UHGV virus genome: UHGV-1390708 | Length of the DNA stretch: 40,460 nt | Direction: 5' to 3' (one strand) | DNA from: a virus | In this document: one piece after another, positions 33,306 to 40,460 of the stretch | Layout: each line of letters starts with the position of its first letter | How positions within the stretch are numbered: the stretch's first letter is position 1 | The notes under the pieces: generated by a model | Databases searched by the model: none | Told to the model about the DNA's origin: nothing | What the model saw: only the letters and a program-made list of their open reading frames with translations | Made by a program: the position numbers and the translations under genes

Positions 33306-35428
33306 TGAAAGTAACTGCAAACGGTAAGACATTTACCTTCCCTGATGGTACGAGCACGGAAGATATTGGCACCGCCATTGATGAGTATTTTGCTGGTCAG
33401 GCTGTTCAGCAACAAACAGTTAATCAGGACAATAATGCACCAACACGGGAAGAACCATCATTGATGCAACAAGCTGGCGATTGGCTCACTGGTGGTCAAA
33501 GTGCAGGGCAAATTGCAGAACAGGCTGGTCGTGGTCTGGTAAACATACCATTTGACGTATTGCAGGGTGGCGCAAGTCTGATTAATGCAATCAGCCAGGG
33601 GCTTGGTGGCCCCAAGGTTTTGGATGATGTTTATCGCCCTGTCGATCGACCGACAGACCCTTGGGCGCAAGCCGGTGAAACAATTGGTGGGTATCTCCTG
33701 CCAATTGGCACAGCGGCAAAAGTTGCTGGAGCGCCAGCAAAGCTCGCAGGAGACATCGGTTCCGCAGGAAACATGATTGCAGGTTCTCTTGCTGATGCTG
33801 CAAATCAGGAGGGTGATTTTGCACAAAATGCTGCCATTAACGGTGGTATCAATATTGGTGCTCAAGGCGTTCTTTCAGGTGTCGGGCGCGTTATTGCGCC
33901 AAGGGTTTCACAGGCTCTTGGTGGTGCAGCACTGAATTCTGCTAATGATGTTTCTAGGATGGCAAAGTCAGGTGCTGGGCGTCAGTCAATTGCCAGTCAG
34001 GCCGCTAATGTGTCCGAAGATGTAGCAAAAGCGGCTGAGTCTGCTGGAATTGATATAAACGCATTAACACCAGGAATGCGATCTGGAAGTCGTGGAATTG
34101 CACAAGCCGAAGGCGCATTGGCATCAACACCTGGAATTGTTCAGGACGCCCATCAGGCAGCATTTAACGAAATATCATCAAAGTTAAGTCGAAACCTTGA
34201 TGAATTTGGGGCCACATCTGGAACGGCATCAGAAAAAAGTGCGGCTATAAAACAAAGGATTCTTCAAAATCTTGATCAGATGAAGGATGCCGAGCGCGCG
34301 GCATGGGATGACGTGCGGTCAACAATGCCAAATCAAAAAGCAAGAATGCTAAATGGTAATGCCGTTATTCAGGCAGAGCGATCTGCTGGCATACCGCTTA
34401 CTCCTGAAATGAAACAGTTTGTTCAGGCAAACAATCAAGGTGGAGTAACATTTGATGGCATGAAAGCATGGAGAGCGAAATTTGCTGATGCGGAGCAAAA
34501 ATATAAGCGTAGCGGAGAGGCAAATGCGGCAAGGAGAGCAGGGGAAATACGCCGGGCAATTACTGATGATATGCGCACAATGGCGGAAAACGGCGGATTT
34601 CTTGATGACTGGCAGAAAGCTAATGATCTGTCTAAAGCGAGGTTATCAGCACAAGAGAGTGCAGAGTCTGTTTTCGGGCGTGATTTGGCAACAGATGCAC
34701 TGATTACGAATGGAGTAAAATCCCTTCAATCATCGTCAGCTAAAGGTCTTAATGGTCCTGCTGGATTCCATTCTATGATCCGCGCGCTGCCAGAATCAGA
34801 GCGTGTTCCTGCTATTTCATCAATGTTGCAAGATGCTATCTCGCATGGTGTACGTGGTGGCAAAGCTGATGCAGCAGGAATTAACCATATCGCAGAGATA
34901 CTGACTCCACAAAATGTAAAAGCCATTAGCCGATATTCCTCAGAGCTTGGAAGAATTGCTGATGCATATGGCACTCTTGCAAGAGCAGCAGTGAAACCTC
35001 AGCAGTATATTGAAAGAACAGGTAGAACTGCCAATGTACTACGCGATCTGGATGCTGGTTTATCCAACGTCACATCAACAGTGTTAAATGCAATTGCCAA
35101 TTCAACATCAGGTGCCATTGTTGGTGGCGCTGGAGGAGGCATTGCAGGCGCTGCCGCAGGTGCTTTAGTTGGCGCTGGGTTAAAAGGCGCTGTATCTAAA
35201 ATTGCCACCACACGTAGTGGTCGGTATGCGATAGAGAAAGCAGTTCAGGAAGCAACTAAAGCAGTAAGAGCAGGCGGAAGCAAAGAAGCATTAGCGGCGG
35301 CGGAACGCAGATTTATGGCAAATAAGGCCGCCGTAAAAGCAATACGCGAGGCACTAGGAAACGAAGAGTTCCAGCGTTTAGCAAGGGCTGGAATTGTGGC
35401 ATCGCTTAGCGGAATGGCACAGGAGTAA
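33302..35428 (+). CDS. Ejection protein, P22 gp16-like, 708 aa.
   Basis: Synteny. A Gly/Ala-rich membrane-active segment near the C-terminus. Confidence 0.7.
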
Positions 35429-35758
35429 TTAGTCATCCATGGATGGATTGAGCTTATCTCGTGTTGATGTGGCAATTTTACCAACATTTTTCAACCAAGA
35501 TTTTAAGAAGGATATGTCGTCCTTAATATCATGAATATCCTCATTCTTTATACGATCAACCTTATCCTCTAGGCTCTCTATAGAACGCTCAATGCTAGAC
35601 AGAGAGATTTTTAAGTCTCCTTGCTCACGTTCCAGTGAGGATTTGAGAGCACAATATTCGTTTTCTAGAATTCCTATTTTTTTTGTTAGAGAGTGCATTC
35701 GATACTCATACACCAAACTAGAAACGACTAATGCAGCCAACAGAAACCATTCAAGCAC
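35429..35758 (-). CDS. Membrane-anchored coiled-coil protein, 109 aa, in the sieA position. GTG start.
   Basis: AAGGAGG Shine-Dalgarno sequence 5 nt before the GTG at 35758. TM segment LEWFLLAALVVSSLVY followed by heptad-like charged helices. AT-rich. The longer track ORF would overlap the next gene. Confidence 0.6.
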   Translation of the reverse strand: MLEWFLLAALVVSSLVYEYRMHSLTKKIGILENEYCALKSSLEREQGDLKISLSSIERSIESLEDKVDRIKNEDIHDIKDDISFLKSWLKNVGKIATSTRDKLNPSMDD

Positions 35759-35788
35759 ACCAACCTCCTTAGTTTTGCGCAGGATACC

Positions 35789-36154
35789 ATGAAAAAAGTT
35801 AACATTGGAAACGTACCAAAAATGCTCGTTCCGCTCTTTGAGAGCGGTACAATTGTGTTTTGTAGAGACTTTCCAGAATGGCAACGCCTGCATCAAAAAC
35901 TTGGTGTGGACGTGCAGGACTCGGATGCCAACGGAGCGTCTCATACAATGAGCAGCGAGAATGGTGTTTTGCATGTGATAGGCGTGTTCAATGGCAAACT
36001 ATCTACTATTGCCCATGAGTGCGCTCACATGGCATTCGATATCTGCTCAAGGGTCGGTGTTGATGTTGAACCAGGAAGAGCCAACGAGACTTACTGCTAC
36101 TTAATGAGCAGGCTTGTTGAGTTCTGCGAGCGACATATCAAAAAGCCGGAGTGA
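35789..36154 (+). CDS. Mini HExxH zinc-metallopeptidase-like protein, 121 aa.
   Basis: GVFNGKLSTIAHECAHMAFD, with HECAH at 36014-28, resembles the ImmA/IrrE (M78) active-site segment. A downstream Glu (ANETYCY) is present. Confidence 0.5.
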   Translation: MKKVNIGNVPKMLVPLFESGTIVFCRDFPEWQRLHQKLGVDVQDSDANGASHTMSSENGVLHVIGVFNGKLSTIAHECAHMAFDICSRVGVDVEPGRANETYCYLMSRLVEFCERHIKKPE

Positions 36155-36427: not shown

Positions 36428-36462
36428 GCAAAAATTAACCCACCTTCAGGTGGGTTTTTTGT
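36428..36462. terminator. Bidirectional-looking hairpin terminator at the 3' end of the first Mnt-like gene.
   Basis: AACCCACC-ttca-GGTGGGTT flanked by T-runs on both strands. Confidence 0.6.
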
Positions 36463-36766
36463 TTAGCAGTTCTCTCAACTTTTCGTTCTGCTCTCTGAAC
36501 TTTTCCTGTATTTCTTTTTGCATGGCGATAACCTGGGCTTGAAGTTGAACTAGCGCATCAACATTTAGCGGAACCGAGACGCTGTTGATTTTATCTGCTA
36601 TTTCCCCGAGTGTATTTTCTGCATTCAAGGCATCTTCCAGTATCTGAACAATCTCTGAGTTCATTGATCTGCCGTTACGTTTGGCTCGTTCAGCTATAGC
36701 ATCCCGCATTCCTGCAGGAAGCCTGATATTGAACCTATCCATTTCATGACTAGGGAACTTGCTCAT
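36446..36766 (-). CDS. Mnt-like ribbon-helix-helix repressor with a C-terminal coiled coil, 106 aa.
   Basis: FNIRLPAGMRDAIAERAKRNGRSMNSEIVQILEDAL is an Arc/Mnt RHH signature. It is divergent from the Arc-like and ant genes. Confidence 0.75.
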   Translation of the reverse strand: MSKFPSHEMDRFNIRLPAGMRDAIAERAKRNGRSMNSEIVQILEDALNAENTLGEIADKINSVSVPLNVDALVQLQAQVIAMQKEIQEKFREQNEKLRELLNKKPT

Positions 36767-36808
36767 ATGACCTCAACGTAAAGATGTTCGCTAAACAATA
36801 GCACCAAC

Positions 36809-36850
36809 TTGACATCAAAATAAATGGTGTTAAATTGGTTCTAGAACCAA
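36809..36850 (+). promoter_or_regulatory. Pant-like promoter (-35 TTGACA at 36809-14, -10 TAAATT at 36831-36) with a 16-bp perfect palindromic operator, TTGGTTCTAGAACCAA (36835-36850).
   Basis: Read directly. The spacer is 16 nt, and the palindrome overlaps the -10 element and the start site. Confidence 0.65.
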
Positions 36851-36877
36851 GTTGGTATCATTATAGGAGGATTACTT

Positions 36878-37051
36878 ATGAAAGATGTGCTTTACACAGG
36901 TCGTAAAAGTCAAAGTTTTCAGCTTCGTTTGCCAGCGCGAATGAAGGAGGAGATTAGACGTGTTGCTGAAATGGATGGAATTTCTATCAACTCTGCGATT
37001 GTGCAGCGACTGGCTAAAAGCCTGAGAGAGGAAAGAGCTAATGCCCAGTAA
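36878..37051 (+). CDS. arc: Arc-like ribbon-helix-helix repressor, 57 aa (under 60 aa, so absent from the track).
   Basis: MKDVLYTGRKSQSFQLRLPARMKEEIRRVAEMDGISINSAIVQRLAKSLREERANAQ. AGGAGG Shine-Dalgarno sequence upstream. Confidence 0.75.
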   Translation: MKDVLYTGRKSQSFQLRLPARMKEEIRRVAEMDGISINSAIVQRLAKSLREERANAQ

Positions 37052-37120
37052 AAATAGTGAAGCCCAGCAGTGCGCGAACACAAACTGGGCCTCTATGTCA
37101 GTAACCGTATGCAAGGAAAC
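37052..37120 (-). ncRNA. Candidate sar-like antisense RNA covering the ant ribosome-binding site.
   Basis: Minus-strand promoter with -35 TTGTAA (37148-53) and -10 TATTCA (37126-31), 16-nt spacer. The hairpin GCCCAG...CTGGGC (37062-37090) is followed on the minus strand by a T-rich run. Confidence 0.4.
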
Positions 37121-37124
37121 TAAC

Positions 37125-37751
37125 ATGAATATTGTAGCAAAATCAGATTACAACTTCCACGGAGTTGAGTTGGTGCCCACCCGTGATATGCATGGTGTTT
37201 GGTTTACATCATCTAATATTGCATCTGCACTTAAATACGCAAATAGTCGTGCAGTAACAATGATTTATAACAAGTATAGCGATGAGTTTAGCGCCGGAAT
37301 GACTCAGGTACTCGAAGTGAGTACCTCAGGAAATTATCGCAAAAAAGTGCGAGTTTTCTCACTACGCGGTGCCCACCTAATCGCGATGTTTGCTCGCACT
37401 CCGGTAGCCAAAGAGTTCCGCCGCTGGGTGCTGGATATTTTGGATCGGCAGGCAGAATGCTCACCGATTGCAAAACAGTTTACTGACGAAGAACTGGTTA
37501 ATCTCTGCTACTTACAATTGTGGATGGAGAAGAGTCAACAAATGTGCAAACACATCTACCCAGGAATGAAGCAAATTGGTTCTGAGCTTTCAGGAAGGAT
37601 TTACGATATTGCATATGAGACTCGCTACATGTCAGAAGAAACCAAGAAATCACTTCTTCGTGAAATGAAGAATCTTGATACCAACAATTTTGTCGTAAAG
37701 AACGCTCAGCCAATACTGGCAAAACTGCGCGGCGAGGAATGGATTCATTGA
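37125..37751 (+). CDS. ant: Antirepressor with a Bro-N domain, 208 aa from MNIVAKSDY.
   Basis: FHGVELVPTRDMHGVWFTSSNIASALKY...LRGAHLIAMFARTPVAKEFRRWVLDIL is Bro-N. AAGGA Shine-Dalgarno sequence. Confidence 0.75.
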   Translation: MNIVAKSDYNFHGVELVPTRDMHGVWFTSSNIASALKYANSRAVTMIYNKYSDEFSAGMTQVLEVSTSGNYRKKVRVFSLRGAHLIAMFARTPVAKEFRRWVLDILDRQAECSPIAKQFTDEELVNLCYLQLWMEKSQQMCKHIYPGMKQIGSELSGRIYDIAYETRYMSEETKKSLLREMKNLDTNNFVVKNAQPILAKLRGEEWIH

Positions 37752-37770
37752 TTGGTGCGCCGGACGGCGC

Positions 37771-37801
37771 AAAAAGAAAACCGCCAGTGTGCTGCTGGCG
37801 G
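37771..37801 (-). terminator. Minus-strand-oriented hairpin plus T-run between the two ant-like genes.
   Basis: The minus strand reads CCGCCAG-cagcaca-CTGGCGG followed by TTTTCTTTTT. Confidence 0.4.
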
Positions 37802-37839
37802 CCTATGTCACACCCTTACTACCACATAAGGAATGCCTA

Positions 37840-38565
37840 ATGACTTTTAAGAATGTAGCAAACATCGGATCCGTTGTCACGGATAAAACCATTGACAGCC
37901 AAAGTCTTCTGATGATGGTTAATGAAGCTCGCAAGTTATGTGGAGAGCCATCAGTACGTAACAACAAATTCATCGAGAAAATTGAGGATGAATTGGAGGG
38001 CGAGACCTACACAAAAAGTGTAGGTCGGAAAAACGGGGCTGACATTGATGTTATCTCCATGACTATCAAGCAGGCGCTTCGTGTTGCTGCTCGCGAATCT
38101 AAAGCAGTTCGCCGAACACTTGTAGACAAACTTGAAAGTATGCAGGAAGCACACATTAAAAGCGGTAAATCAGCGAGTGGACTTGTTGAGTATCGTCAAG
38201 CGCGAACATTGAAAATGACGGTTGAAGCTGTTACCAATCTGTTCGATCTGATGCCAAATCTTGCGCCTGAGGCAAAGCAGACTGCGGCAGCAAGCATAAT
38301 CAACCCGATCGTTGGTTTTAATGCAATACCTCTTCCAGCAATAGAAGAGCATTACTACTCAGCAGGGGAGGTTGCAGAGCAGCTTGGAGTAACGGCCAAC
38401 AAGATTGGTCGCATTGCTAACGCAAACAACCTCAAAACTGAGCAGTACGGCAAGTTCTTCCTAGATAAATCTGCGCATTCCAGCAAACAGGTAGAGGCGT
38501 TCCGCTACAATGCGGAAGGTGTTAAAGCACTACAACACCTGATTCATGGGAGTAATGTTGCATAA
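37840..38565 (+). CDS. Second antirepressor-like / phage regulatory protein, 241 aa from MTFKNVANIG.
   Basis: AAGGA Shine-Dalgarno sequence. The C-terminal YYSAGEVAEQLGVTANKIGRIANANNL is HTH-like. The family assignment is uncertain. Confidence 0.4.
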   Translation: MTFKNVANIGSVVTDKTIDSQSLLMMVNEARKLCGEPSVRNNKFIEKIEDELEGETYTKSVGRKNGADIDVISMTIKQALRVAARESKAVRRTLVDKLESMQEAHIKSGKSASGLVEYRQARTLKMTVEAVTNLFDLMPNLAPEAKQTAAASIINPIVGFNAIPLPAIEEHYYSAGEVAEQLGVTANKIGRIANANNLKTEQYGKFFLDKSAHSSKQVEAFRYNAEGVKALQHLIHGSNVA

Positions 38566-38786
38566 TGGCAAAGAAAAAATATGGCATTATGCCGCCAAGA
38601 ATCAAAGGAAGAGCCAGGGTAAAAGGCGATGCTGGAAGGTATCACATTCTTGGAGTTCTGTGGCATGAGAGAGCTTTAATTTTAAGTAGACCTCATGGGT
38701 ACATTGAAAAGGTATCTATAGATAGAGTAGAGATTCTTCCCCTTACACCTGAAGAAGAAGAAACGTACGGACTTTTTGATAACTAA
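38565..38786 (+). CDS. Hypothetical basic protein, 73 aa.
   Basis: ATAATG junction with the preceding gene. A terminator follows. Confidence 0.5.
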   Translation: MAKKKYGIMPPRIKGRARVKGDAGRYHILGVLWHERALILSRPHGYIEKVSIDRVEILPLTPEEEETYGLFDN

Positions 38787-38793
38787 CCAACTA

Positions 38794-38820
38794 AACCCGC
38801 TTAATCGCGGGTTTTTTCTT
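38794..38820 (+). terminator. Intrinsic terminator at the convergent junction with mnt.
   Basis: AACCCGC-ttaatc-GCGGGTT followed by TTTTTCTTTT. Confidence 0.7.
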
Positions 38821-39058
38821 TTCTAAGGATATCAGCCACAACTTCTTTTACTCGTTCCGAGATTAATGAGGCCAGCCTCTCTTCTTCATCACGATACCCG
38901 CTTACAGGTGATGGTTTGGAGAGTGATTCTTCCATCGTAGCCACAATTTCGGAATTGATAGACCTGTTATTCATTTTTGCACGTTGCTTAATCTTAGCGT
39001 GCAACTCGTGCGTAAGCCTCAAGTGGAACTGCGCCTCATCGTATTTGCTGTACATCAT
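38801..39058 (-). CDS. mnt: Mnt repressor (P22-type RHH), 85 aa from MMYSKYDEAQFHLRL.
   Basis: RSINSEIVATMEESLSKPSPVSGYRDEEERLA closely parallels P22 Mnt ...SKPSPVTGYRNDAERLA as I recall it. GGTGAGG Shine-Dalgarno sequence. Confidence 0.8.
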   Translation of the reverse strand: MMYSKYDEAQFHLRLTHELHAKIKQRAKMNNRSINSEIVATMEESLSKPSPVSGYRDEEERLASLISERVKEVVADILRKEKTRD

Positions 39059-39190
39059 CAATGCCTCACCAAATGGGTGGAATGGCATCGTAAAACCTAC
39101 TGTACAAATCAACAATCGTACCATTTCGGTATGCAACAAACACCAACCGTAGCCATGCTGCGGCGATTCCTTGTATCTGGAGCAAATTAA

Positions 39191-40460
39191 ATGACAGATT
39201 CAATAAATGCCAATGTTGTAGTAAGCATGCCTTCGCAACTCTTCACTATGGCGCGTTCTTTTAAAGCGGTTGCCAATGGCAAAATTTATATCGGAAAAAT
39301 TGACACTGACCCGGTAAATCCTGAAAACCAGATTCAGGTTTATGTAGAGAACGAAGACGGTTCTCACGTTCCTGTTTCGCAACCAATCATCATTAACGCT
39401 GCTGGTTACCCAGTATATAACGGACAGATTGCCAAATTCGTAACTGTGCAAGGTCATTCGATGGCTGTTTATGATACGTACGGTGCGCAGCAGTTCTATT
39501 TTCCTAATGTGCTGAAGTATGACCCTGACCAGTTCCGGCAGGAGCTAGAGAGAGAGTTTGCAAGCGGGGCATTCCCTGAAACAGTAAAGTATAAGTATGG
39601 ATTACCATCTGTTGTTGATGGTGCCGTATACAGAACTGTTCAGGATAAGCTTGATGATTTTGTGTTCCTTGAGGATTTCGGAGGAAAAGACGACGGAGGT
39701 ATTACTGATAACTCTTTAGCATTTAAGAAGGCGTTTGCATCAGGTGCTAAGAAAATTTATCTCAGAGGATCTGGTGTTTATGCCATGGCTACTCGTGATA
39801 TTGAGTTGCCTGCCAGGTATGAAATTATAGGTAATGCAAAAAATCCAGAGATTAAATATCTAGGTTCTGATTCAACCTTCACTATGTTTACCCTTACAGG
39901 GTCTGGCCCGGCTGCTAGTCAGTGGAAACAGGGTGGCATCTTTAGGGATGTGATCATTTCATCTGATACAGTAATTAACTGGATGGTTTGCCGACATGTC
40001 CAGAACTTAGATTTCGACAGAGTGTACTTTTACAACTCAAGAACTTTAATGAACAACTATCACTATGTTAACTTCTTTAGATGTGAACGTTGGTCGAGCG
40101 GATTTGAAGGCAGATCAGACCTTAACACAGTAAATTTCATTAGCGAGTCTCCAAAATTTTTGATGTGCTTTAGCTCAAACTCACCTATAGATGTTTGGGA
40201 TACAGCAGACCTTAGTATCACTTTCTGCACCTTTTTTGCGGGAGATTATGCAGTACAGACTAAAGTTACTCTGGTATCGCCAACAGCGCTGGACCAATTT
40301 GCTGGATACCAGGTATTTATATCCAACTCTGTTTTTGATGCAGTTTCTGGTAGCGCATGGTTACTTAACGGCATTGCGTACGGATCTATCATTGGTAACT
40401 TTGTGTCATCTGGGCGTGATGCGACAGCTTCCGGTGCTGTTGTTGATGGTGTCCGTTCAA
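39191..40460 (+). CDS. Tailspike, 3'-truncated by the window end. It has a P22/HK620-type N-terminal head-binding domain and a divergent beta-helix receptor-binding domain.
   Basis: [60 protein letters not shown]. The frame was checked by hand and is open to position 40460. [23 protein letters not shown] is a pectate-lyase-fold entry motif. Confidence 0.9.

Follow-up and report, generated by a model that had tools for sequence, protein, structure and literature searches.

A composite ant moron in a P22-like Escherichia coli prophage, probably two tandem immI-type units of which the right one lacks arc and ant

The virus genome UHGV-1390708, a stretch of 40,460 nucleotides that is called the window here in its whole length, is a P22-like (Lederbergvirus-type) Escherichia coli prophage. 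The subject of this work is the variable set of genes that lies in it between the end of the DNA-injection gene, the gene 16 (gp16) homologue, at 35428 and the start of the tailspike gene, the homologue of gene 9, at 39191. An insert of the same kind in the same place was termed the "ant moron" by Villafane et al. 2008, and the accessible text of that paper describes it as expressed independently of the late operon and as existing across sixteen genomes in ten types, certain of them with six genes and others with mnt alone (PMC2629481). The interval in the window is probably a composite ant moron, in which two units of the immI type stand in tandem, the left one complete and the right one without arc and ant. 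It represents a repeatedly occurring variant of a phage region already known to change fast, and not the rewired circuit that an earlier sequence-only reading of this DNA had seen, with two Mnt-like repressors, an Arc-like repressor and two antirepressor-like genes as parts of an expanded immI.

Two immI-type units ahead of the tailspike gene

Calling of open reading frames (ORFs) returned the gene order and every ORF coordinate that the sequence-only reading had given, and scans for promoters and terminators also found the Pant-like promoter and the terminator after orf73 that it had proposed (Table 1). The two leftward repressor genes, one at the head of each unit, are named RHH#1 and Mnt#2 below, for the ribbon-helix-helix (RHH) fold that both products share. 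Mnt#2 is the one that resembles P22 Mnt throughout, as had been noticed: it matches Pfam PF03869 (9.9e-15) and PHROG 795, and it aligns with P22 Mnt (1mnt) over residues 7-79 (E 8e-17), including the Mnt-type C-terminal half with LSKPSPVSGYRDEEERLA. It is not divergent from an arc-ant operon, as the tailspike gene (ATG at 39191) comes directly next. RHH#1 also matches the Pfam Arc family (PF03869, 1.6e-20), but it falls in a different PHROG (1287, 2e-47), and its matches to PDB structures, 1mnt among them, cover only the RHH, residues 10-51. The Mnt-type C-terminal half is absent from it, the 1mnt match stopping at residue 51, so that the earlier name "Mnt-like" suits its fold and its position and not its C-terminal half, which is unrelated to Mnt and places it in another family.

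Table 1. Features of the interval and its control regions, with positions in the window (RBS, ribosome-binding site)
Feature	Position	Strand	Remarks
Left unit A	36437-38814		RHH#1 (-), Pant-like promoter, Arc-like gene, ant1, ant2, orf73, terminator
Terminator	36437-36456	both	AACCCACCTTCAGGTGGGTT, T-runs on either strand (terminator scan)
RHH#1	36446-36766	-	Arc-family repressor of 106 residues, placed as mnt is in P22 and pointing away from the ant operon
Candidate operators, 9-bp inverted repeats	36803-36811 and 36848-36856		ACCAACTTG/CAAGTTGGT, either side of Pant
Pant-like promoter	36809-36836	+	-35 TTGACA 36809-36814, spacer 16, extended -10 TGtTAAATT
Candidate operator, perfect 12-bp palindrome	36837-36848		GGTTCTAGAACC, over the Pant start site
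Arc-like RHH	36878-37051	+	57 residues, first gene of the ant operon; Pfam Arc PF03869 8.3e-12, P22 Arc (1arq) 1.8e-5
sar1, candidate antisense RNA	37046-37124	-	across the ant1 RBS; terminator hairpin 37059-37093
sar1 extended -10	37131-37139	-	TGCTACAAT, reverse complement of these positions
ant1	37125-37751	+	208 residues; Bro-N PF02498 1.9e-10 and P22_AR_C PF10548 2.5e-14
sar2 unit	37768-37880	-	promoter, predicted RNA of about 75 nt, terminator
sar2 promoter	37880-37852	-	-35 GTGACA 37880-37875, spacer 17, TACATT; extended -10 TGCTACATT 37860-37852; just inside ant2
sar2 predicted RNA	about 37845 to 37770	-	about 75 nt, over the ant2 start codon and RBS
sar2 terminator	stem 37804-37778 and T-run	-	strong, just 5' of ant2 (scan)
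ant2	37840-38565	+	241 residues, two domains
orf73	38565-38786	+	PHROG 4977 (annotated unknown function) 5.5e-54; start overlaps the ant2 stop (TAATG)
Terminator	38793-38814		between the convergent orf73 and Mnt#2 genes (scan); the same sequence closes the left cassette in L126 and L128
Right unit B, immI stump	38801-39145		Mnt#2 and its control region
Mnt#2	38801-39058	-	85-residue true Mnt homologue, RHH and Mnt-type C-terminal domain
Control region	39059-39145		leader stem-loop, candidate Pmnt2, decayed rightward hexamers, palindrome
Leader stem-loop	39067-39079		CACC-N5-GGTG
-35-like rightward hexamer	39082-39087	+	ATGGCA
Candidate promoter Pmnt2	39087-39115	-	TTGTTG-17-TACGAT, reverse complement of these positions; where Pmnt sits in P22
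-10-like rightward hexamer	39105-39110	+	CAAATC
Palindrome, candidate Mnt#2 operator	39118-39132		GTACCATTTCGGTAT, 15 bp
Tailspike-leader hairpin	39147-39163	+	CCGTAGCCATGCTGCGG, right-hand junction of the variable region

The evidence for a tandem comes from related loci (denoted by L numbers), for which IMG/VR loci, 80 containing Mnt#2 and 80 containing ant2, were surveyed and their layouts classified by tblastn. Two of them, L126 and L128, are intact tandems, in which the left cassette and the same terminator are followed by a complete P22-type unit (leftward mnt, the Pant region with Oarc and Omnt, arc and ant), the tailspike leader and the tailspike gene. A third, L070, is a half-deleted intermediate, in which Mnt#2 and its operator are followed by a P22-type ant reduced to its last 110 codons (93% identity) and then by the tailspike gene. 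These intact and half-deleted forms speak for a tandem immI whose right unit has lost arc and ant, and against the rewired immI of the earlier reading. An intact mnt-arc-ant unit of the Mnt#2 type was sought in IMG/VR and in species-representative genomes, where the relic in L070 and intact units with other Mnt types were the only ones to be found.

The position of Mnt#2 is strikingly constant, as it is leftward and directly adjoins the tailspike gene in all 80 of its IMG/VR loci and adjoins it in five of six full-length loci from other genera; in the sixth, L170 of Serratia, mnt and its control region are present and no tailspike match was found after them. The arrangement was also seen in Citrobacter, Buttiauxella, Symbiopectobacterium and other Escherichia. 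What stands to the left is variable. In about 27 loci Mnt#2 is alone between gp16 and the tailspike gene, as in Sf101, SE1 and ST64T, and in the remainder it is preceded by a left cassette with an RHH#1-like, a JEP4 C2-like or a P22-Mnt-like regulator. Since Mnt#2 has no ant of its own and the left cassettes of its relatives are unrelated, it is an orphan. That the P22-type Mnt has neither arc nor ant to itself and does not belong to the left circuit, as the earlier reading had suggested, thus agrees with its pairing with at least four unrelated types of left promoter and regulator and its frequent occurrence alone. "Two independent RHH units" is formally true as well, and "orphan" is apt, the operator palindrome described below being found almost exclusively beside Mnt#2. 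The gene is under purifying selection, with a median ratio of nonsynonymous to synonymous substitution rates (dN/dS) of 0.11 over 183 pairs at dS 0.3-3, and its persistence under selection argues for a role.

The left unit also has a history of its own. At 74 ant2 loci the downstream sequence was long enough to tell what follows, and in 29 of them both Mnt#2 and a tailspike gene are missing. Shiga toxin (Stx) phages carry an RHH/arc/ant cassette with a sar-like hairpin within a tail gene operon (L168:3008-4603); the left cassette is therefore an independent mobile unit. As HK620 matches the window only in both flanks of the interval, the entire interval is an insert relative to that phage. The closest sequenced phage, JEP4, has ant1, ant2, orf73 and Mnt#2 in common with the window but carries, where the window has RHH#1 and the Arc-like gene, a helix-turn-helix C2-like repressor and another arc. 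Eighteen complete E. coli genomes, that of strain 55989 among them, contain the entire 3.1 kb at 95-98% identity, while of 5426 complete genomes 106 have the Mnt#2 module and 91 have ant2. Comparison of immI layouts across P22-like phages, as the sequence-only reading had advised, thus yielded tandem, half-deleted and lone-mnt forms. That reading had also considered that the layout might turn out to be a common arrangement with a known single circuit, which was borne out in part: the layout recurs, in 18 genomes, and falls within the known variability of the ant moron.

The left cassette, its antirepressor-type genes and their predicted antisense units

A leftward RHH gene divergent from an ant promoter, as is RHH#1, is also found in the Stx phages. 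The 3' 280 bp of the RHH#1 gene (36439-36720) are 95.7% identical to Stx1- and Stx2-converting phages, and this similarity stops just short of the DNA-reading strand. The first two rightward genes are as the sequence-only reading had them, an Arc-like gene and a Bro-N Ant (Table 1). The latter, ant1, belongs to PHROG 245, "anti-repressor Ant" (1.3e-53), and its homology to P22 Ant is confined to the C-terminal domain (BLASTP, residues 206-274 of P22 Ant, 29% identity, E 1e-9); the N-terminus showed no similarity to that of P22 Ant by BLASTP and is of the Bro-N type instead. Downstream of ant2, orf73 is variably present among otherwise identical layouts.

The second gene, ant2, which had been called regulatory or antirepressor-like, is unrelated by sequence comparison to both ant1 and P22 Ant. 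It matches PHROG 1726, "anti-repressor", across its full length (1e-101) and PHROG 130 weakly (5e-4), and sequence searches of Pfam (E up to 0.1), NCBIfam and PDB gave no usable match; nor was the KilAC/ANT family among the weak Pfam matches (E up to 1) of 27 ant2 homologues. Its AlphaFold2 model, with a confidence (pLDDT) of 73, has a winged-helix-like N-terminal domain, a helical linker and a MerR/Xis-like winged-helix C-terminal domain. Foldseek against BFVD aligned it over about 250 columns (E 1.7e-9 to 1e-5, TM-score about 0.3) with full-length viral proteins whose annotation is antirepressor, KilAC or KilA. The gene product may thus be of the antirepressor type with a KilAC-like fold, a label that comes from annotation transfer and from this fold match of medium confidence.

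The alternative, that ant2 is no antirepressor and is instead a DNA-binding regulator (Rha or a MerR-like winged helix) or some other effector beside a single antirepressor, is doubtful, though a serious possibility: the names "antirepressor" and "KilA" borne by its relatives are themselves annotation transfers, and the gene lacks a sequence match in Pfam, NCBIfam or PDB. Set against this are its position, nearly always downstream of another ant gene in a Pant-type operon, its own predicted sar-type antisense control, like that of ant genes, and the annotation of its full-length fold matches as antirepressor or KilAC. A trace of the gene survives in P22 itself, in the spacer between ant and gene 9 (L002:3494-3704), as an 18-codon relic of ant2 residues 47-64 (12/18 identical, pairwise tblastn E 4e-6, 24/26 nt identical), from which it follows that the tandem order of ant and then ant2 is older than the present layout of P22.

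Both ant1 and ant2 are preceded by what appear to be antisense units of the P22 sar type. In the P22 reference annotation, the sar promoter lies within the 5' end of ant, the 70-nt sar runs across the ant RBS and its terminator comes directly after arc. The spacer between the Arc-like gene and ant1 aligns with the P22 arc-sar-ant region, with the hairpin, TGTCAGTAA and ATGAATnnTGTAGCAA in common, and the predicted sar1 RNA (37124 to 37046) takes the two-hairpin fold of P22 sar (z -5.4 vs -5.3; 0 of 200 shuffles fold as well). Upstream of ant2 homologues, a terminator was found in every one of 47 distinct sequences, built from three unrelated stem sequences. Across the same 47, the extended -10 motif of sar2, TGnTAnnnT, is held while the residues encoded there vary (V/I/L, N/T), and pairing in the stem is kept at three of nine pairs despite changes on both sides (RNAalifold).

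A census of gene starts, with a minus-strand TGnTAnnnT in the first 30 nt of the gene as the marker of a sar-type promoter, found promoter and terminator together in all 37 distinct ant2 contexts and at none of the control gene starts. The minus-strand extended -10 is present at 8/8 P22-type ant starts and 28/34 ant1 starts, and at none of the Mnt#2, RHH#1, arc, orf73, gp16 or tailspike starts. The terminator rule of the census is too strict for P22-type sar terminators, so that sar1-type units are under-counted. By position, partial sequence and fold, then, sar1 and sar2 appear to be sar-like while lying outside the curated Rfam family. They share with P22 sar a predicted RNA of about 70-80 nt that begins inside the 5' end of ant, runs antisense to the RBS and ends in a hairpin just upstream. 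sar1 has sequence blocks and the two-hairpin fold in common with it as well, whereas the gene that follows sar2 is unrelated to P22 ant, and sar2 itself begins a few bases within the coding region and has a canonical strong terminator. The prediction is of a second family of sar-like antisense RNAs, outside the Rfam model, that would control an uncharacterised and widespread antirepressor-like family of about 2,000 homologues.

Two minor observations touch these units. A small GC hairpin (GCGCC-GGAC-GGCGC, 37757-37770) lies between the ant1 stop and the sar2 terminator and is partly conserved at ant1-ant2 junctions. The minus-strand TGnTAnnnT is also present in 9/9 distinct o121 starts (35789 onward), which could be chance among near-identical sequences or another antisense promoter.

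The control region of Mnt#2 and the possible part of the orphan repressor

The sequence-only reading had found no clear operator palindrome in the 132-bp spacer between Mnt#2 and the tailspike gene (39059-39190), but an alignment of 60 distinct spacers of this kind shows a conserved one at 39118-39132. The spacer is laid out like the P22 mnt-arc spacer, with matching distances. After the complement of the mnt start codon (CAT in both) comes a leader of 22 nt in P22 and 23 nt in the window, then a -35-like rightward hexamer (TTGACA in P22) and, after a gap of 17 nt in both, a -10-like one (TATATT in P22; TAAATC or TATATC in relatives of the window). The palindrome follows after 6 nt in P22, where it is the 17-bp Omnt, and after 7 nt in the window. 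A search of 39059-39190 for a good rightward promoter to the tailspike gene gave degraded hexamers only, and degradation at key positions is what is expected of a promoter whose operon was lost.

Among the 60 spacers the arms of the palindrome are conserved and the central five bases are variable, and the arms go with the DNA-reading β-strand of the adjoining Mnt. The strand AQFHLRL of the Mnt#2 type, that of the window included, is found with GTACC-N5-GGTAY; PQFNLRL (L073, L074, SE1 and ST64T) is found with AGACC-N5-GGTCT; and PHFNFRM of P22 is found with GGTCC-N5-GGACC, the experimentally known Omnt. SE1 and ST64T have AAGACCACCGTGGTCTT at the position of the palindrome, of the same form as P22 Omnt, AGGTCCACGGTGGACCT. 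The shorter motif YACC-N5-GGTR occurs twice in the 40-kb window, both times within the Mnt#2 spacer. Near-perfect matches to the palindrome number 130 in 1.78 Mb of related loci, of which 125 fall within the Mnt#2 spacer and 0 in ant promoters, and the ant promoters of 165 loci hold no Mnt#2 operator at one mismatch or fewer from the perfect palindrome. On this sequence evidence the palindrome at 39118-39132 is most likely the operator of Mnt#2 and its sole recognisable target.

The other copy of YACC-N5-GGTR, at 39067-39079, was considered as a second operator and rejected, as it is better read as a stem-loop at the 5' end of the mnt mRNA: P22 and SE1 have a different sequence of the same symmetry there, and it varies among lineages with the same DNA-reading strand. 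An outer inverted repeat, (G)ATGCC-N18-GGCAT(C) at 39061-39089, surrounds the Mnt#2 RBS and leader and overlaps the predicted Pmnt2 -10; it is conserved in Mnt#2-type and SE1-type spacers and absent in P22. Mnt proteins themselves are mosaic, their RHH halves and C-terminal halves being differently combined (the window, L073, L166, L167 and L002), and in L073 an SE1-type N-terminal half is joined to a C-terminal half of the type in the window.

The working of the two units can be proposed by analogy with P22. In the left unit, RHH#1 would keep the Pant-like promoter silent in the lysogen. Upon infection, or once repression is lifted, the Arc-like gene, ant1, ant2 and orf73 would be transcribed from Pant as far as the terminator at 38793-38814, and the Arc-like protein would then turn Pant off. 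The sar1 and sar2 RNAs, from promoters in the 5' ends of ant1 and ant2 to the hairpins just upstream, would pair with the RBS of each gene, and the translation of ant1 and ant2 would thereby be limited separately. The right unit would be what remains of a second immI, once composed of mnt, a divergent Pant, arc, ant and gene 9, from which arc and ant were deleted so that the mnt control region was joined to the conserved tailspike leader. Mnt#2 would still be produced from its own leftward promoter, the candidate Pmnt2, would most likely bind the palindrome as a tetramer, and would regulate its control region and, within it, the decayed rightward promoter, which now faces the tailspike gene. 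Its most likely function is to guard in trans against incoming relatives that carry a cognate operator, to limit transcription into the tailspike gene in the lysogen, or both.

Several results weigh against parts of this scheme. In the right unit, the RHH-coding half of mnt adjoins the operator and recombines with it as one block, so that the co-variation of protein and palindrome, which is drawn from few lineages, marks a cognate pair by linkage and is no independent proof. The hexamers of Pmnt2 are weak (7/12), were assigned by analogy with P22 and were missed by the consensus scan, and Sf101-type spacers have a 2-bp deletion that upsets their spacing. No phage with a Mnt#2-type operator ahead of an intact arc-ant was found among the loci and genomes searched, which weakens the idea of immunity in trans. 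In the left unit, co-variation across promoter types gave no consistent code for the operators of RHH#1 and the Arc-like protein, and neither inspection by eye nor a consensus scan produced a convincing promoter for RHH#1. The -35 of sar1 is poor, and the Rfam model RF00262, with which P22 sar as the positive control scores 97.8 bits, gave no match either in 3.5 kb (E up to 1) or in the 141 bases around sar1 (E up to 10). To these must be added the basis of the ant2 label, annotation transfer and a fold match of medium confidence.

With these points in mind, a broader proposal is put forward tentatively, as one that has a reasonable but less than even chance of proving right: the stub of Mnt and operator may be a stand-alone module that is kept for a function of its own in prophages of Escherichia, Shigella, Salmonella, Citrobacter, Buttiauxella and Serratia, either as an orphan "anti-antirepressor" against induction by relatives or as a lysogeny-specific tailspike gate, and sar-type units may be a portable form of control placed ahead of several unrelated antirepressor-type genes. 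If true, such portable units would let two antirepressors of one operon be controlled separately.

That Mnt#2 is chiefly a tailspike regulator, which from a site about 60 bp upstream of gene 9 silences a residual rightward promoter or blocks entering transcription in the lysogen, is unlikely, although it would explain the strict linkage to the tailspike gene in every viral locus and most other genera, even where there is no ant gene at all. The palindrome has the position of Omnt, from which the rightward promoter of P22 is blocked; an effect of the P22 ant moron on tailspike levels, with a possible role of Mnt and Arc, has been proposed (Adams et al. 1985, as cited in PMC2629481); and dense sense and antisense transcription has been seen in BTP1 at the junction of gene 16 and the tailspike gene (PMC7067206). 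The rightward hexamers, however, are degraded (CAAATC or TAAATC, without the final T, and a -35 of nnGGCA), the linkage may reflect merely a shared conserved junction sequence, and mnt is absent from many P22-like phages, such as HK620 and Sf6 (PMC2629481).

The tailspike-leader hairpin CCGTAGCCATGCTGCGG stands just 5' of the tailspike gene in 113 loci, independent of which gene precedes it, with variation of the G-U type on the plus strand; it could be a structure of the leader, a sequence at the junction of modules, or the two at once. In P22 the ant terminator is directly followed by another, degenerate copy of this hairpin. In JEP4 (L001:6159-6349), the tailspike leader and the first 9 nt of a P22-type tailspike ORF are kept and are followed by unrelated AT-rich sequence and a different tailspike gene, a switch that is a visible recombination scar.

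A single integrated circuit, in which Mnt#2 also represses the left Pant through GAACCAAGTTGGTAT (36844-36858) and both repressors in the Mnt position jointly control ant1 and ant2, is distinctly improbable. The site is the best off-target match to the operator in the window, with one mismatch and as one of only three such sites, and lies at +2 to +16 of Pant with the 4-N5-4 geometry of the Mnt#2 operator. Yet the match was spotted post hoc, and its mismatch falls on arm position 2, which differs between Mnt specificity types. The same promoter and palindrome occur in cassettes without Mnt#2 (L103, L107, L125 and L165), and Mnt#2 is equally found with promoters of the JEP4, L045 and L049 types, all of which lack such a site. 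The last alternative, that Mnt#2 is a relic which has lost its function and is disappearing with the rest of a degrading immI region, is very hard to credit: its arc-ant partners are gone and a remnant was considered for the mnt of phage L (PMC8022706), but the low dN/dS over diverged pairs, an ORF that is intact across 65-100% identity in several genera, palindrome arms that are kept while the centre drifts and a lone-mnt state that has lasted in several lineages (SE1, ST64T/L, Sf101 and IME10) all stand against it. An orphan Mnt with its own candidate operator remains the preferred reading of the right unit.

Relation to known phages

The interval occupies the location of P22 immI and repeats much of its plan. 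In the left unit a leftward RHH gene diverges from a strong promoter that is followed by an Arc-type RHH and an antirepressor, with a predicted antisense unit over the ant RBS, and in the right unit a true Mnt homologue has a palindrome at the Omnt position. Unlike P22 immI, the window has two tandem units, of which the right one is without arc and ant, and its left unit differs in a leftward RHH protein without the Mnt-type C-terminal domain, an Ant of the Bro-N type and the additional ant2-orf73 with a second antisense unit. The DNA-reading strands of all three RHH proteins differ from those of P22 Mnt and Arc, so that the operators should differ as well. None of these findings overturns the P22 paradigm.

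A lone mnt beside the tailspike gene has been reported for ST64T, ST104 and phage L (PMC2629481 and PMC8022706), and the one in phage L was said to be a gene that "could have acquired another function… or be a remnant" (PMC8022706). Phages L, ST64T, ST104, SE1, Sf101 and IME10 are like the window in having a leftward mnt directly upstream of the tailspike gene without arc or ant, the same spacer plan and a palindrome at the Omnt position; the mnt of the window differs in being preceded by a complete and unrelated ant cassette. In the P22-like prophage BTP1, the junction of gene 16 and the tailspike gene is the start of STnc6030 (Owen et al. 2020), a leftward, prophage-expressed antisense RNA of about 786 nt, which is non-coding, overlaps the injection and tailspike coding regions and has a role in superinfection immunity (PMC7067206). 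Unlike STnc6030, the leftward transcript predicted here encodes Mnt#2 and has no predicted overlap of the tailspike ORF.

The ant moron and its flux are already published (PMC2629481), as are lone mnt genes, which were left unexplained (PMC8022706). The accessible text of PMC2629481 contains no tandem-plus-deletion reading, no Mnt#2 operator and no second antisense unit. As far as the literature could be searched, what is added here is the tandem-plus-deletion reading, with examples of both the intact and the half-deleted form, a candidate operator for the Mnt types that adjoin the tailspike gene, the purifying selection on an orphan mnt and the second sar-type unit ahead of the ant2 family. 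Antirepressor modules decide prophage silence and can induce neighbouring prophages, and the reading of the layout as a complete mobile cassette and an orphan repressor can guide the annotation of dozens of gene calls now listed as "Arc family" or "hypothetical". For the persistence of lone mnt genes in phage L and ST64T, the candidate operator and the evidence of purifying selection offer a testable answer.

Near the left end of the variable region, two ORFs overlap on opposite strands, at 35429-35974 (minus) and 35789-36154 (plus). The PHROG match of the former spans residues 73-181 only, so that the true minus-strand gene probably begins further in and does not overlap its neighbour. The product of the plus-strand ORF is identical to a P22 protein.

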